A stretch of 64,000 bases of DNA from Simkaniaceae bacterium (GTDB lineage Bacteria > Chlamydiota > Chlamydiia > Chlamydiales > JACRBE01), in the NCBI GenBank assembly GCA_022763045.1, contig JALEGI010000003.1, positions 12,289 through 76,288 of the forward strand. The letters run 5' to 3'. The notes below the pieces were generated by a model, which was given only the letters and a program-made list of their open reading frames with translations, was not told where the DNA came from and did no database searches. The position numbers were made by a program, and so were the translations under genes. Positions 1,944-27,323 of this stretch are shown in pieces. Every line of letters starts with the position of its first letter. The first letter of the stretch is position 1.

Positions 1944-4034
1944 ATGAAGAGTGATTTTTTAGAGATAGAGACCTATTATCACCATCCAGATGAGGGAGCT
2001 GAGGGCTTTAACCTGTTCAAACACGCTGTCCAAAAGCAGATCGAAATTCTACTCCCAGATGCTCTGCGTGAGATTGAAGATGAGGAGCTTTTCTATAAAG
2101 AGATGCAAAAGCAGATGCCAATTTTGAGCTGGTCTGCCTCTTCGAAAGAGCCCTACGCTGTGCGCTTTAGCTGCATGTGCCCCTCTGCCTACACACATGG
2201 TGTTGGTCGTTTCTTGGCAGACATGTGTAGTCGCTGGTTCATCCCTGGAAAACAACTTCCCCTTGTTAGCGTCAATACAATGGCCTTCAACTTCAAAAAG
2301 GCGCCTTGGCTGCAATGCCTTGCCCTTGAGCTGATTGCTCCAATCGGCTCGAAAAAGGATCTAGCGATTGTCAAATCAAGTATTGAAGACTTTATGCGTG
2401 AAATGCGCCTAATTATCATGGTCGTTCAACACGCCCGCTCGATTGTCTCTTCAAAACCACTCACACTCCCTCAGAAAAAGCTGCTAATCGAGGAGAATAT
2501 CTCGACACTCATCGATCGCCCCTCGACTGAGCTTGACCTCAGTAGCTTTGACCAGATGCACCACTTCCTGATCAAAGTGATGGGTGAGCAAAAAATGTCG
2601 AAAATCCAAGAGAATATGGCACCTTTACAAGAGGCAAAGCCGCAAATCTTCGATCGCGATATTTTCAATGAACTGCAACTCTACCTTGGACTGTTTAAAG
2701 ATCGCTTTGTCGCGCTTCGCGACATGAAGCATTTAATCCGAATCATCTCCTACAAATACCTCTTCCGCAAAACAATTCAAAACGCCCAAGCGCACATGCC
2801 AACCCAGCGCCACATGAGTGTAAAAATCGTACCAACGAAACTCGAAACAACAGGGGCATCGCGGCCCATCTTGGGAGTCATTGTTGGGATGAACCTCATT
2901 AAAGAGAACGAGCTCTTCGAAGAAAGGCATGTGATGCGCGCGCTTATGAATCTTCTCGAAGATATCGAGCTCGTTCAAGACTCTGTTATACTCGATCGCA
3001 GGGCGCCTTCACAGGTTCGCACGCTCTACCTGGAAATTGCCAAGATTGATGGTAAACCCTTTTCTGCATCTGAGCGCAGGCGCGTCAAACTCGAGCTCTC
3101 AACTCAATTAAAGACCTCCGTTGAGAGCGCAATTAACCCCATCTTCATGCCTAAAAATGAAGAAGAGGTAATGCGCAACATTGTCACGCTTTCAAACCAA
3201 CTTAAGTATGCAAGTGACATTCCACAGGTTATTATTAACTTTCAAAAGCAGAGCGAGAGTCACATCTCTTTCACAATCGTTTTGCTCCGGCTTATCAAAC
3301 GCGACGCTCTACGGTTCAAAGAGCTTCTTTCGAAACGAAAAAGTCCCTACCTGATCGATAAAATCGACTCCAAAATTGTCGGGCAATTGCGTAAACGATT
3401 CCCGAAAGAGGCGAATGTCTTTGAACTTCATCTCAAGAAGCAAGACTTTCTACGCAGCGATTTCTCACTTGATCTCTTTGAAGCGCGTCGTGAAGTCTTT
3501 CAAACGCTGACAAACCTTGTTGGCGAGCTGCGCGACTACAACGGTGGGATGATCTCCAAACAGGCTGAGGTCTTCAATATATTAACCAAACTTTTGGATA
3601 AGAGACAAAAGACCAATGACTTTCTCCTTAAAACTTTCTTCTATTCGATCACACCAAGCTACATGCAAAGCCTTCTCGACCCTAAACTATTGAAGATACT
3701 CTTCCAGATGGTCACTAAAACTGTCCACCACGACTACAACCACGCTCCTCACAGAATCGAAATGAAACGTGAAAAAGGGTATTTTTTCTGTACTCTTGGC
3801 TGCATTAACCCTGCGCTGCGCAATCATATCATTGAACGTGTTGAGACCTTGGATTTCTATGAAAATGATTTAACTAGCTGCTCACTTCACACCTATGACA
3901 TTGCAATGCTAAGCTACCTTATCAAAGAGGGCGACTCGTTTGAAGACAAACGATTAGAGGAGACAATTCAACTGGGGATCAATGAATGGGAAGGAAAAAT
4001 AAATGTCGAACTATCGCGGTCACACACTCTTTAA
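1944..4034 (+). CDS. Hypothetical protein, 696 aa (probably Chlamydiota-conserved)
   Basis: Long ORF tightly packed in operon; no family motif recognised with confidence. Confidence 0.8.
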   Translation: MKSDFLEIETYYHHPDEGAEGFNLFKHAVQKQIEILLPDALREIEDEELFYKEMQKQMPILSWSASSKEPYAVRFSCMCPSAYTHGVGRFLADMCSRWFIPGKQLPLVSVNTMAFNFKKAPWLQCLALELIAPIGSKKDLAIVKSSIEDFMREMRLIIMVVQHARSIVSSKPLTLPQKKLLIEENISTLIDRPSTELDLSSFDQMHHFLIKVMGEQKMSKIQENMAPLQEAKPQIFDRDIFNELQLYLGLFKDRFVALRDMKHLIRIISYKYLFRKTIQNAQAHMPTQRHMSVKIVPTKLETTGASRPILGVIVGMNLIKENELFEERHVMRALMNLLEDIELVQDSVILDRRAPSQVRTLYLEIAKIDGKPFSASERRRVKLELSTQLKTSVESAINPIFMPKNEEEVMRNIVTLSNQLKYASDIPQVIINFQKQSESHISFTIVLLRLIKRDALRFKELLSKRKSPYLIDKIDSKIVGQLRKRFPKEANVFELHLKKQDFLRSDFSLDLFEARREVFQTLTNLVGELRDYNGGMISKQAEVFNILTKLLDKRQKTNDFLLKTFFYSITPSYMQSLLDPKLLKILFQMVTKTVHHDYNHAPHRIEMKREKGYFFCTLGCINPALRNHIIERVETLDFYENDLTSCSLHTYDIAMLSYLIKEGDSFEDKRLEETIQLGINEWEGKINVELSRSHTL

Positions 4035-21971: not shown

Positions 21972-22556
21972 TTATTTTTTTGCAGTCTTACGTCTGCGAA
22001 CAACTCGACGAGTTGTTTTTTTAGCAGCTGGCTTTCTTTTAGCAGCTACTTTTCTCTTAGTAGTTGTTTTTCTGCGAGTTGTTTTGCGAGCAGTTGTTTT
22101 TTTAGCAGCTGGTTTGCGCTTAGCAGTAGTCTTTCTTTTTGCAGTAGTTTTGCGCTTAGCTGTTGTTTTTTTAGCAGCTGGCTTTCTTTTCGCAGTAGTT
22201 TTACGCTTAGCTGTTGTCTTTTTAGCAGCTGTTTTGCGTTTTACTGTTTTGCGCTTAGTAGTTGCTTTCTTAGCAGCTGGCTTACGCTTAGCTGTTGTCT
22301 TTTTAGCAGCTGTTTTGCGTTTTACTGTTTTGCGCTTAGCTGTTGCTTTCTTAGCAGCTGGCTTACGCTTAGCAGTAGTTTTACGCTTAGTAGTTGCTTT
22401 CTTAGCAGCTGGCTTGCGCTTCGCTGTTGTTTTTTTAGCAGCTGTTTTTCTGCGAGTAGTTGTCTTTCTCTTCGCAGTAGTCTTTCTAGCAGCTGGCTTC
22501 TTAGTTGTCTTGCGAGCTGTAGTCTTCTTAGCAGCTCTTCTTCTTTTGACAGCCAT
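21972..22556 (-). CDS. hctB: Histone H1-like nucleoid protein Hc2
   Basis: K/R/A/T-rich repeats (KKTTAKRKPAA); SD AAGGAG upstream; chlamydial context. Confidence 0.85.
   Translation of the reverse strand: MAVKRRRAAKKTTARKTTKKPAARKTTAKRKTTTRRKTAAKKTTAKRKPAAKKATTKRKTTAKRKPAAKKATAKRKTVKRKTAAKKTTAKRKPAAKKATTKRKTVKRKTAAKKTTAKRKTTAKRKPAAKKTTAKRKTTAKRKTTAKRKPAAKKTTARKTTRRKTTTKRKVAAKRKPAAKKTTRRVVRRRKTAKK
22201..22362 (-). repeat. 81-bp tandem duplication inside hctB
   Basis: 22201-22281 and 22282-22362 differ at 2 positions. Confidence 0.85.
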
Positions 22557-23314: not shown

Positions 23315-24745
23315 ATGGAGATTGAACAAGGTAATAACAAACGCGTAATTTCTCTCTTTGTCTTAACGATGCTGAACGTGTCGATTATGGCAAGTTTACG
23401 CAACCTCCCACTAGTCGCTGAATTTGGCTACAGTTCAATTTTCTTTTTCTTTTTAGCGGGTCTTCTTTTCTTGATTCCTTGCGCTCTAGTTTCGGCTGAG
23501 CTTGCAACAGGCTGGCCTCATTCTGGTGGTATTTACATTTGGGTGCGTGAAGCTTTTGGTGACCGTTGGGGCTTTTTTGCTATCTGGATGCAATGGGTTC
23601 ATAACGTCACTTGGTATCCCGCAATTCTCTCCTTTGTTGCGACAACTTTGACCTATGTTATTTTTGGTCATGAGGTCGTTAATCGCCTCTATACGTTTCT
23701 TGTAATCATTATCTGTTTCTGGGGAATGACGTTAATGAACTACCTGGGAATTCGCGTCTCTACACTCTTTTCAACGATAGGTGTAATCGGCGGCACCATT
23801 GTCCCTGGCATCTTTATCATCTACCTCGGTGTCCAATGGCTCGCTACAGGACAACCTGCACAAATTCAATTTTCCTGGAATGCTCTCGTTCCTGAATTTA
23901 ATAGCCTTCAAAACCTTGTATTTCTTGGAGGACTCTTTTTAGCATTTGCAGGTTTGGAGGTTTCAGCAGGTTATGCAGGTGAAGTTAAAGAGCCGCAAAA
24001 AAACTACCCTAGATCGATCATCTTTGGCGCTCTTATCACCTTTCTTCTTTTCATGCTTGGCTCTCTTGCAATTGCATTTGTTATTCCAAAATCCAACATC
24101 TCTCTTGTTGCTGGTTTGATGGAGGCCTTCCAGATATTTTTAATACGCTATAACCTGACACCCCTACTTCCAATTCTTGGCATTCTTCTAATTATTGGAG
24201 CTATTGCGGAAGTCAACTCTTGGATTATTGGACCAGTAAAGGCGCTATTTGAAACGGCCGAACATGGAGATCTACACCCGCTTTTCCAAAGACAAAACAA
24301 ACACGGAATGCCTACAAATCTACTACTTTTCCAGGCAATTATAGTAACGCTGGTTGCCTGCGTCTTTCTCGTTATGCCAGATTTAAGCATCTCCTACTGG
24401 ATCCTATCGGCTCTAAGCATTCAAATCTATTTAGCGATGTATCTATTTATGTTTGCAGCCGCAATTCGTCTGCGCTACACACACTCTCACGTCGAGCGCG
24501 CCTATAGCATTCCCCACCCACATAAGGGCATGTGGGTAGTTGCCTGCGTCGGGATTTTAGCCTCTCTTTTTGCCTTCCTTCTCGTGTACGTACCACCTGC
24601 GGGCTTTGAAATTGGAAGTCTTCTCTTTTACGAGCTCTTCTTAATCATCGGCTTTGTTGTAATGGCAGCGATACCAATCATTCTACACGCATTTAAAAAG
24701 CCTGAGTGGGACCCAACTCATGAGGGGCACTTTACAAACAAATAG
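23315..24745 (+). CDS. gadC: APC-family amino acid antiporter, GadC-like
   Basis: SLRNLP, IPCALVSAELATGWP, GGIYIWVREAFG, AGLEVSA, SWIIGP, LRYT; substrate inferred from gadB elsewhere in window. Confidence 0.75.
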   Translation: MEIEQGNNKRVISLFVLTMLNVSIMASLRNLPLVAEFGYSSIFFFFLAGLLFLIPCALVSAELATGWPHSGGIYIWVREAFGDRWGFFAIWMQWVHNVTWYPAILSFVATTLTYVIFGHEVVNRLYTFLVIIICFWGMTLMNYLGIRVSTLFSTIGVIGGTIVPGIFIIYLGVQWLATGQPAQIQFSWNALVPEFNSLQNLVFLGGLFLAFAGLEVSAGYAGEVKEPQKNYPRSIIFGALITFLLFMLGSLAIAFVIPKSNISLVAGLMEAFQIFLIRYNLTPLLPILGILLIIGAIAEVNSWIIGPVKALFETAEHGDLHPLFQRQNKHGMPTNLLLFQAIIVTLVACVFLVMPDLSISYWILSALSIQIYLAMYLFMFAAAIRLRYTHSHVERAYSIPHPHKGMWVVACVGILASLFAFLLVYVPPAGFEIGSLLFYELFLIIGFVVMAAIPIILHAFKKPEWDPTHEGHFTNK

Positions 24746-24766: not shown

Positions 24767-26020
24767 ATGTCAGTCCCCCTCCCAGAGAAACTCAGACCTA
24801 AGACCTTTTCAGATGTGATCGGTCAACAGCATCTTCTTGGTGAAAACGGACTTCTGACTAAGGTCGCAGATAAAAAATACCCCATCTCTATTCTCCTGTG
24901 GGGACCCCCTGGATGCGGTAAAACGACAATTGCCCGCCTTTATGCTAAAGCTTTCGACTCCGAATTTATTTCATTTAGCGCTGTATTCAATTCAATCACA
25001 GATTTAAAGAAAATCATCAAAGAGTTTAAAGAGCGCCCCCTATTTAAAAAGAAACTCATTGTCTTCGTCGATGAAATCCACAGATTCAACAAAGCGCAAC
25101 AAGACGCCTTTCTTCCCTACTTGGAAGATGGAACGCTCCTATTAATAGGTGCGACAACTGAAAATCCCTCTTTTGCCTTAAATAATGCCCTTCTTTCAAG
25201 GTTGCGCGTCTTCGAATTACGCCATTTAGATAAAAGCTCTCTTAAAGTTATACTCGACAGATTCCAAACGAATTACGGCATAGAAATTGAACTTTCAGCT
25301 CAAGAGGCGCTTATTGAGCAATCATCTGGCGACGCTAGGCACCTATTAAACTTATTAGAAAATGTCTTAGAATTTTCTAAAGGAAAAAAGGTCGATCTAG
25401 AGGAGTTAAAGGGGCTGCTACAAAAGAGACTACCTCTTTACGACCGCGCAAGTGAAGAGCACTACAACCTTATCTCTGCTCTACATAAATCTGTAAGGGG
25501 CTCAGATCCCGACGCCGCGCTCTACTGGCTTGTTCGAATGCTTAAAGCGGGTGAAGATCCACGCTTTCTTGCAAGGCGATTAATTCGTATGGCATCAGAA
25601 GACGTTGGTATGGCAGATCCACAAGCTCTTGTGATCTGTAACAATGCAGCAATCACCTATGAGCGCCTTGGCTCTCCTGAGGGCGAGCTCGCACTTGCAG
25701 AGGCCACAATCTACCTAGCTTTAGCTCCCAAAAGCAACGCCACCTATCTTGCTTATAAAAAAGCAGTTGCAAAAGTTGAAGATTCAGGACACCTCTCACC
25801 TCCCAAGACAATTTTAAATGCGCCGACTAAGTTGATGAAAGAGAGCGGCTACGGCGAGGGCTACCTCTATGACCACGACCAGCCTAATGGATTTTCTGGA
25901 CAGAACTATTTTCCAGACGAGTTTAGCTCAAGACCTAAATTTTATACCCCTGTTAGTAGGGGGTTTGAAAGAGAAATGGAAAAAAGAATTAGTTATTTTG
26001 ATAAATTAAGAAATAAATGA
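24767..26020 (+). CDS. rarA: Replication-associated recombination protein A
   Basis: WGPPGCGKTT, DEIHRFNKAQQD, GATTENP, SALHKSVRGSD, SEDVGMAD, APKSN. Confidence 0.96.
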   Translation: MSVPLPEKLRPKTFSDVIGQQHLLGENGLLTKVADKKYPISILLWGPPGCGKTTIARLYAKAFDSEFISFSAVFNSITDLKKIIKEFKERPLFKKKLIVFVDEIHRFNKAQQDAFLPYLEDGTLLLIGATTENPSFALNNALLSRLRVFELRHLDKSSLKVILDRFQTNYGIEIELSAQEALIEQSSGDARHLLNLLENVLEFSKGKKVDLEELKGLLQKRLPLYDRASEEHYNLISALHKSVRGSDPDAALYWLVRMLKAGEDPRFLARRLIRMASEDVGMADPQALVICNNAAITYERLGSPEGELALAEATIYLALAPKSNATYLAYKKAVAKVEDSGHLSPPKTILNAPTKLMKESGYGEGYLYDHDQPNGFSGQNYFPDEFSSRPKFYTPVSRGFEREMEKRISYFDKLRNK

Positions 26021-26026
26021 TATAAA
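25998..26026 (+). promoter_or_regulatory. Putative promoter of structured RNA
   Basis: TTGATA-N17-TATAAA with TG extended -10. Confidence 0.45.
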
Positions 26027-26029
26027 TAA

Positions 26030-26172
26030 GTCAAAGGGGAAGTTTATTTTATCTCGTGTAAAATAACCCTCGGCACAGCTGCCTCTTGGTGAGGCGACAC
26101 GTCCCTTGTGGACATGCTTTTCGCCGGGTCCTCTTCCCTTTTGACACCTCTTCTAAAGAGGTGTTTTTTTTT
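26030..26172 (+). ncRNA. Candidate structured ncRNA or leader (family unassigned)
   Basis: 13-bp closing helix 26030-42/26133-45, three internal hairpins, upstream promoter and downstream terminator. Confidence 0.5.
26144..26172 (+). terminator. Intrinsic terminator
   Basis: acacctctt-cta-aagaggtgt followed by T8. Confidence 0.85.
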
Positions 26173-26180
26173 GGAGTAAT

Positions 26181-27323
26181 ATGAGCGATTTAGAAAGCTA
26201 CACAATTGATATTCGAAGAAAATTACACGAAATTCCAGAATTAAGCTGGGAAGAGGAGAAGACGCTAGAACTCATCCATTCAGAGATCGAAAAAATCCTG
26301 TCCCAATCCCCTTTCGACCATTCGATTGAGGTGAAAAAAGGGGGAATTGTCGTTGATATCAATATCGATCCAAAACTTCCAAGAAGGCTTCTACGTGCAG
26401 ATTGTGACGCCCTTCCAATCGAAGAGAAAACACATCTTCCCTACAGCTCAAAAAACCCTGGAGTGATGCACGCCTGTGGCCACGACTGTCACAGTGCAAT
26501 GCTCCTTGGCGCACTTAAGGGACTCTCAAAACCTAAGTATAACCTGAGGTTTGTCTGGCAAAGGGCCGAAGAGCAGTGCTTCCCGATGTCTGGGGGCTGC
26601 ACACTTGTTAAAAAGGAAAACCTTCTTGACGGAGTTGATGAAGTCTATGGCCTGCACATCATCTCAAATTACCAAAAGGGAACGTTTTATAGCGCCCCTA
26701 CCAAGCTCATGGCAAATTCAGGTTTTTTTGAGATGCGAATAGAAACTGCCGGCGGACATGTGATGAATCCACATATTGAAGCTAATGCTATCGATGTGAG
26801 TGTCGATATTCACACTGCACTTCGTGGACTTCCTGTAAGAGTCCTAGGCCCTATTGAGCAGGTTTCATTCGTCCCTACGATTTCCAAGGCCGGTCAAACA
26901 GCTAACATTAGACCAAGCTCAGTTGACTTGTGCTACTCCTTTCGCAACTTTAGCGATCACGACAACCGTAAAAAGTTTGTTCATGCTTTACAAGAGCGTG
27001 TGGAAAATATTATCAATGGTTATTCCAACGCAAAACTGACTAAGTTTGAGTTTATTGAGGGCTACCCTCCCGTCATCAATGACCCTGAAAGCTATGAAAA
27101 AGTGAATGAGGCGCTACTAAAAGCTGGTTATAAGACTGAGCTTCAATCCCCTCTATTTTGTGGCGAAGATTTTGCCTATTACCTTGAAAAGAGACCTGGA
27201 GCTTTTTGGCTTTTAGGAGCAAAACAGGGAGAGGGATGGGACCACCACACTCCCCTCTTTAACCCTGATGAATCGGCTATGATTCACGGAGTAAACTACT
27301 GGCTCTCTCTCTCATCAGATTGA
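26181..27323 (+). CDS. M20D family amidohydrolase
   Basis: RRKLHEIPELS, LRADCDALPI, MHACGHD, QRAEE, GEDFAYY, HHTP. Confidence 0.93.
   Translation: MSDLESYTIDIRRKLHEIPELSWEEEKTLELIHSEIEKILSQSPFDHSIEVKKGGIVVDINIDPKLPRRLLRADCDALPIEEKTHLPYSSKNPGVMHACGHDCHSAMLLGALKGLSKPKYNLRFVWQRAEEQCFPMSGGCTLVKKENLLDGVDEVYGLHIISNYQKGTFYSAPTKLMANSGFFEMRIETAGGHVMNPHIEANAIDVSVDIHTALRGLPVRVLGPIEQVSFVPTISKAGQTANIRPSSVDLCYSFRNFSDHDNRKKFVHALQERVENIINGYSNAKLTKFEFIEGYPPVINDPESYEKVNEALLKAGYKTELQSPLFCGEDFAYYLEKRPGAFWLLGAKQGEGWDHHTPLFNPDESAMIHGVNYWLSLSSD

Follow-up and report, generated by a model that had tools for sequence, protein, structure and literature searches.

A likely small non-coding RNA gene after rarA in a Simkaniaceae genome, and the chlamydial RNA family to which it probably belongs

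Chlamydiae have few known regulatory RNAs, and the literature searched describes none outside the genus Chlamydia. Bacterial Y RNAs, the partners of Ro60, are built on a 5'–3' stem with variable inner domains, and 6S RNA forms a rod with a central bubble and measures 160–200 nt. In lactic acid bacteria 6S lies after rarA (PMC8414754). The chlamydial RNA IhtA (PMC3469542, PMC4355289) is ~110–140 nt long and intergenic, with a promoter in the 3' end of the upstream gene and its own terminator; its three stem-loops stand side by side, its gene is located between sctC and tRNA-Thr, and its target sequence is CAUGGCG. Orphan structured RNA motifs from comparative screens (PMC8632094) are covarying, clade-restricted, intergenic and without an assigned function, and the sole chlamydial genome in that screen was Chlamydia pecorum.

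Here we describe a structured element downstream of rarA in a Simkaniaceae genome. It is like IhtA in being chlamydial, in size, in its intergenic position and in the placement of its predicted promoter and terminator, but it has a closing helix with nested junctions, follows gadC–rarA and carries no anti-CAUGGCG seed; identity with IhtA was rejected, since both tRNA-Thr genes lie on other contigs and the RNA has no such seed. The properties listed for orphan motifs apply equally to the family described below. Like 6S RNA (RF00013) and the chlamydial 6S-like RNA, the element is single-copy, closed by a 5'–3' helix and followed by a U tract; however, it is branched where 6S is a rod with a bubble, and it matches neither RF00013 nor a chlamydial 6S-like model (R1). 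Its overall layout recalls bacterial Y RNAs, but it has no Rfam match, and this assignment was dropped with a TROVE protein present in one of five carrier genomes and absent from the source genome. The literature searched, from which subscription papers and bioRxiv supplements were excluded, contains no description of such an RNA, and an earlier report, especially of the 6S-like RNA, is possible. On sequence comparison, this is likely a new structured RNA family that is clade-restricted and matches nothing in Rfam.

The rarA–M20 spacer

The window is the whole stretch of 64,000 nt that was analysed, taken from a chlamydial genome of 1.8 Mb that is 95% complete (G000). Its relevant features are as follows:

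23315..24745, + strand: gadC-type amino-acid antiporter gene, the conserved upstream neighbour of the RNA locus
24767..26020, + strand: rarA (MgsA-family AAA+ ATPase), whose last codons overlap the predicted promoter
25998..26026, + strand: predicted sigma66/70-type promoter, read by eye: TTGATA 25998–26003, 17 nt, TG 26018–19, TATAAA 26021–26; predicted start near 26033
26030..26145, + strand: RNA body, closed by P1 (26030–42 with 26133–45)
26044..26066, + strand: P2, an AU hairpin, a variable arm across the RNA family
26069..26128, + strand: conserved core, with P3 (26069–74 with 26123–28), junction 26075–80, P4 hairpin 26081–95 and P5 hairpin 26101–13
26143..26172, + strand: intrinsic terminator hairpin and U tract, immediately 3' of P1
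26173..27323, + strand: Shine–Dalgarno sequence (26173–76) and M20 amidohydrolase gene (26181–27323), likely expressed by read-through; divergent from the RNA in relatives

The element lies in the 160 nt that separate the stop codon of rarA (26020) from the start of M20 (26181). All helices named in a preliminary description of this DNA were found in place, and the body is exactly 116 nt long, with a P1 of 13 bp that includes one G–U pair. Folded by itself the body reaches -44.4 kcal/mol (z = -4.99) and none of 200 shuffled sequences was as stable; with the terminator added z is -4.43. Pair probabilities lie mostly above 0.9 in P1, P2, P5 and the terminator (>0.99 in the last) and at 0.75 in P3 and P4, and for the inner domain a second fold is predicted at about 24%. 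Judged by GC-adjusted stability alone the element ranks 62nd among the 287 intergenic regions of the genome, because many of these contain a palindromic repeat. By these model-based measures the predicted fold of the window element is real.

The signals around the fold fared unequally. The strong terminator described earlier, with a U tract abutting the M20 Shine–Dalgarno sequence, was recovered as a hairpin (26143–65) followed by nine T (26164–72), and GGAG (26173–76) and ATG (26181) come straight after it; the scan that calls it finds one site against 1.2 expected per kb, and this call alone is therefore not significant. The promoter, given as TTGATA-17-(TG)TATAAA, is visible by eye, but a strict scan returns no sites, the last base being A and not T; its -35 and TG fall within the last codons and the stop codon of rarA. 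No terminator lies between rarA and the element. Neither the region nor the window has an Rfam match, in agreement with the earlier failure to recognise a riboswitch, SRP or tRNA consensus. Comparison with sequencing runs revealed no variant within the element; two reads of run X2 are identical to it, and run X1 may derive from the source of this DNA. Taken together, the predictions make it likely that a small non-coding RNA gene lies here, with its own putative promoter and terminator.

Two further observations concern the surroundings. A perfect TTGACA stands at 26141–26146, across the junction of P1 and the terminator and without a -10 partner. A histone H1-like gene of Hc2 type (21972–22556, minus strand, 194 aa; a weak match below the cut-off) lies 3.5 kb from the RNA.

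A structured RNA family beside rarA

A structured element was found downstream of rarA in several families (51 loci read, 31 and 20 more; 101 genomes with rarA), and a model, R2, was built from the aligned elements of 10 relatives with the window excluded. After context checks 43 members were kept, at 43 loci in 43 genomes of six families (f1, f8, f11, f28, f43 and f47), which may be Simkania- and Rhabdochlamydia-like lineages. In a phylum sample of 149 genomes R2 matches 20 of 22 in f8, 11 of 17 in f43 and the one genome each of f11 (1/1) and f28 (1/1); a single putative match was obtained in f5 (1/19, E 0.01) and none in f35 (0/26), f32 (0/17) or f30 (0/14). Matches inside ORFs away from gadC or rarA were dropped (G144 at E 1e-4, G077, G001:C29, G130, G113, G096, G023, G003:C8, G050:C2, G025, G075, G134:C1:1091755 and G157), the 43 also leave out weaker R2 matches together with G238, G239, G243 and G245, and G210 (L321) was omitted from the alignments. 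Other searches yielded little: BLAST of the region against 41 genomes gave chance or rarA matches only, the best same-family match falling inside a gene, and scans for M20 in genomes and metagenomes brought up mostly genes from outside the chlamydiae, with no model match at the two closest loci (L222 and L223). For eight member loci Rfam 15 yields no family at E ≤ 1.

A RarA tree with 29 rows, two of 31 having dropped out, places all 10 rows from carrier families together on one side of a branch (87/92) that is neither rejected nor established, and on sequence grounds the RNA family is likely confined to one chlamydial clade.

The covariation that the preliminary description had named as a check was found in the core helices of the family once homologs were collected. 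An unfitted 10-row alignment has 98.3% of cells paired, with changes on both sides in 7 of 12 pairs, and a fitted 32-row alignment has such changes in 9 of 12. The covariation was reached by 0 of 500 shuffles, a result not to be read as a probability, as related sequences can beat shuffles; slid controls gave at most 0.13 against 0.49. In the core consensus CUC.. pairs with ..GAG in a helix, the junction bases A, C and A hardly vary, and the hairpin reads GYCUC-UNAUA-GAGRC; the arms P2 and P5 vary widely across the family, P2 from 24 nt to more than 130 nt. In f43 (L302–L312, L115–L117) the P2 arm forms a three-way junction of its own, which bears a conserved hairpin with a five-base loop and gives the RNA two similar domains.

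The position of the family on the chromosome is fixed, and it is independent of the neighbouring genes. Among the 43 members 34 converge on rarA, five on gadC and one (G046) is co-oriented with rarA, three being without context; M20 is divergent from the RNA in all 11 loci that include it (of 33). An extended -10-like motif, TGnTA[AC][AC]TT, precedes the RNA in 19 of 33 loci and occurs in 0/33 on the other strand, and a downstream U tract is present at 30 of 33 member loci. G011 and G105, two genomes in which rarA was not found, retain the RNA, and it also stays in place where other genes insert beside it. Translation offers no common thread: an ORF led by a Shine–Dalgarno sequence is found in 10 of 32 members, none alike across families, and a type I toxin or small-peptide mRNA was rejected for want of a conserved short ORF of this kind. 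With their own signals and independence of neighbours, the members support the earlier suggestion of a stand-alone sRNA, as far as predicted signals can.

Three loci stand somewhat apart. At L042 (2738–3607, G090) an inserted PD-(D/E)XK gene of Rpn type (PF12784) separates rarA from the RNA. After gadC in G001 (L133, minus strand, ~3000–3180) the family architecture can be made out by eye; neither model scores it, and rarA and M20 were not found in this genome. G004 has two short pieces, at the end of C68 (L031) and the start of C36 (L140), one resembling the 5' core of the RNA; they are found both after rarA and before M20, with a different relative orientation, which suggests that the locus is rearranged or broken.

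Standing of the window copy

That the window copy is a divergent member of this family seems to us probable, the grounds being synteny, a common architecture and a weak match to the core profile. The copy occupies the same gadC–rarA/M20 position as in the same-family genome G003 and in relatives, and it has the architecture P1-P2-P3(P4,P5)-terminator with the helices in family order. Its P4 region is identical to the best member at 15 of 18 positions (median 12 of 18 over the 43). A core profile trained on 28 non-f1 members (rows L030, L066, L074, L305 and L309 left out) gives the window core 6.7 bits, a score reached by 12 of 2000 spacer shuffles and expected 0.009 times per such spacer; this amounts to a P of about 0.006–0.009 given the locus and is not significant genome-wide, where 106 sites are as good. 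Read on the minus strand the element scores 0.3 bits, against 6.7 on the plus strand, and has no terminator. Of 110 genome sites at this score, sixteen pass combined filters for P1, P5 and terminator, as do 34 of the 43 members, and the window site is the only intergenic one among the sixteen; spacer ranges and filters were set after the element had been seen.

The divergence is considerable. The held-out covariance models R2 and R3 both miss the window copy; G003 receives only 16 bits from R2 and is missed by R3, and family f1 seems to be evolving fast here. Positions that are nearly invariant in the family are changed, namely the P4 loop (UUGGU here, UNAUA in the family) and one junction A; at this locus the promoter motif of the family is seen only within rarA codons; and the copy is co-oriented with rarA, in contrast to 39 of the 40 members whose context is available, G046 alone being alike. 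The window copy is likely a shortened, flipped family member.

Possible modes of action

We give a probability of about one half to the reading that the element is a stand-alone RNA gene of ~140 nt that belongs to the family in compact, inverted form and acts in trans through a protein-binding conserved core. Transcription, family membership, inversion and protein binding, as we infer them, would combine as follows. The housekeeping sigma factor would start the RNA near 26033 from the promoter inside the end of rarA, and the RNA's own terminator would end it at the U tract. Its fold would consist of the closing helix P1, the variable arm P2 and a core whose helix P3 encloses the short junction, the hairpin P4 and the variable arm P5; the P3–junction–P4 core would offer a surface for a protein to bind, on a scaffold whose arms are free. 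In this genome the cassette would have turned round, with loss of the AT-rich divergent promoter region upstream of M20; the terminator here would also end gadC–rarA transcripts, and M20 would be fed by terminator read-through. Protein binding is proposed because the conserved letters lie in stems and junction, the arms are free to vary, there is no long conserved single strand and no mRNA target stands out. No partner protein was found.

The same RNA family might instead pair with mRNAs independently of Hfq, as IhtA does, a loop or the junction CAU covering the start codon. Such pairing is somewhat unlikely. IhtA makes do with 7 nt and without Hfq (PMC4355289), and its promoter likewise sits in the end of the upstream gene (PMC3469542); by analogy with this 7-nt seed (PMC4355289), the hairpin loops of 5–9 nt could be seeds. 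CA(U) occurs in the P3–P4 junction of most members and CAUU in the P5 loop of many f8 members, but the window copy lacks the junction CAU and the letters flanking CAU vary. No target stood out among 1636 start regions (a weak test in one genome), and the Hc2-like gene ranks 72nd, through the U tail only.

It is unlikely that the window element is the structured 3' end of a gadC–rarA transcript, or an unrelated lineage-specific sRNA, whose likeness to the family is positional only. Its orientation and the failure of both covariance models to find it would fit this, as would the lack of a terminator between rarA and the element and the promoter left uncalled by the strict scan. Five helices and a terminator in family order, the profile P at this locus and the sole intergenic pass through the filters speak against it, and the recognised member G046 has the same co-oriented arrangement.

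We regard as distinctly doubtful that this is a housekeeping-type ribonucleoprotein RNA beside tmRNA, RNase P, SRP and 6S RNA. As such it would bind a nucleoid protein or RNA polymerase and so govern the change between the replicating and the infectious form, and it might replace 6S in f1 and f28. The two-junction fold persists in one clade even where its genomes are reduced; G000 has its tmRNA, RNase P RNA and SRP RNA on other contigs.

The preliminary description also raised a short 6S-like RNA. A shrunken 6S RNA, or a second 6S-like RNA binding the sigma66 holoenzyme, would suit the place after rarA (as in lactic acid bacteria, PMC8414754) and a role that looks vacant, for neither RF00013 nor R1 finds a 6S-like RNA in G000 or its family. 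R1 was derived from weak RF00013 matches in relatives, RF00013 itself exceeding the Rfam cut-off in 0 of 120 genomes; searched across 150 genomes of the order, it finds a 6S-like RNA in 79, with none in f1 (0/5) or f28 (0/4). This RNA adjoins a lipoate-protein ligase gene in seven of ten loci checked (L033–L037, L039 and L315–L318 among the loci). But 14 of the 79 genomes carry both the new family and this separate 6S-like RNA, and the window element is branched, is 116 nt long, has no RF00013 match and lacks all three chlamydial 6S motifs; the 6S reading is very unlikely.

An attenuator or riboswitch for the M20 amidohydrolase, likewise proposed at the outset, is highly improbable. The terminator abuts the M20 Shine–Dalgarno sequence with no separate promoter called, and the core has its 24% alternative fold, but forcing the antiterminator pairing (26130–35 with 26156–61) costs 15.6 kcal/mol at a probability of 2e-11, and both alternative folds retain P1 and the terminator. 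The RNA is not an M20 riboswitch because it faces rarA or gadC in 39 of 43 members and M20 is divergent wherever present (11/11 relatives). A resemblance to riboswitches of the glycine, TPP, FMN, lysine or yybP type was also weighed and dropped for lack of an Rfam match.

The suggestion of a miniature palindromic mobile element has next to no chance: P1 does form a 13-bp terminal inverted repeat and the genome has an abundant palindromic repeat, but the element, checked for dispersed copies, is single copy, bears no likeness to that repeat, has no flanking duplication and keeps a fixed position across families. The repeat itself is dispersed and intergenic, with at least 33 copies (e.g. C9:156690-156880) and none on C11.

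If the inversion holds, the RNA family also offers an example of an RNA gene that has turned round at its locus two or more times. A covarying RNA that 20 of the 22 genomes sampled from one family retain, and that is spread over six small-genome families, is probably under selection and can be addressed directly in pull-down and expression experiments.
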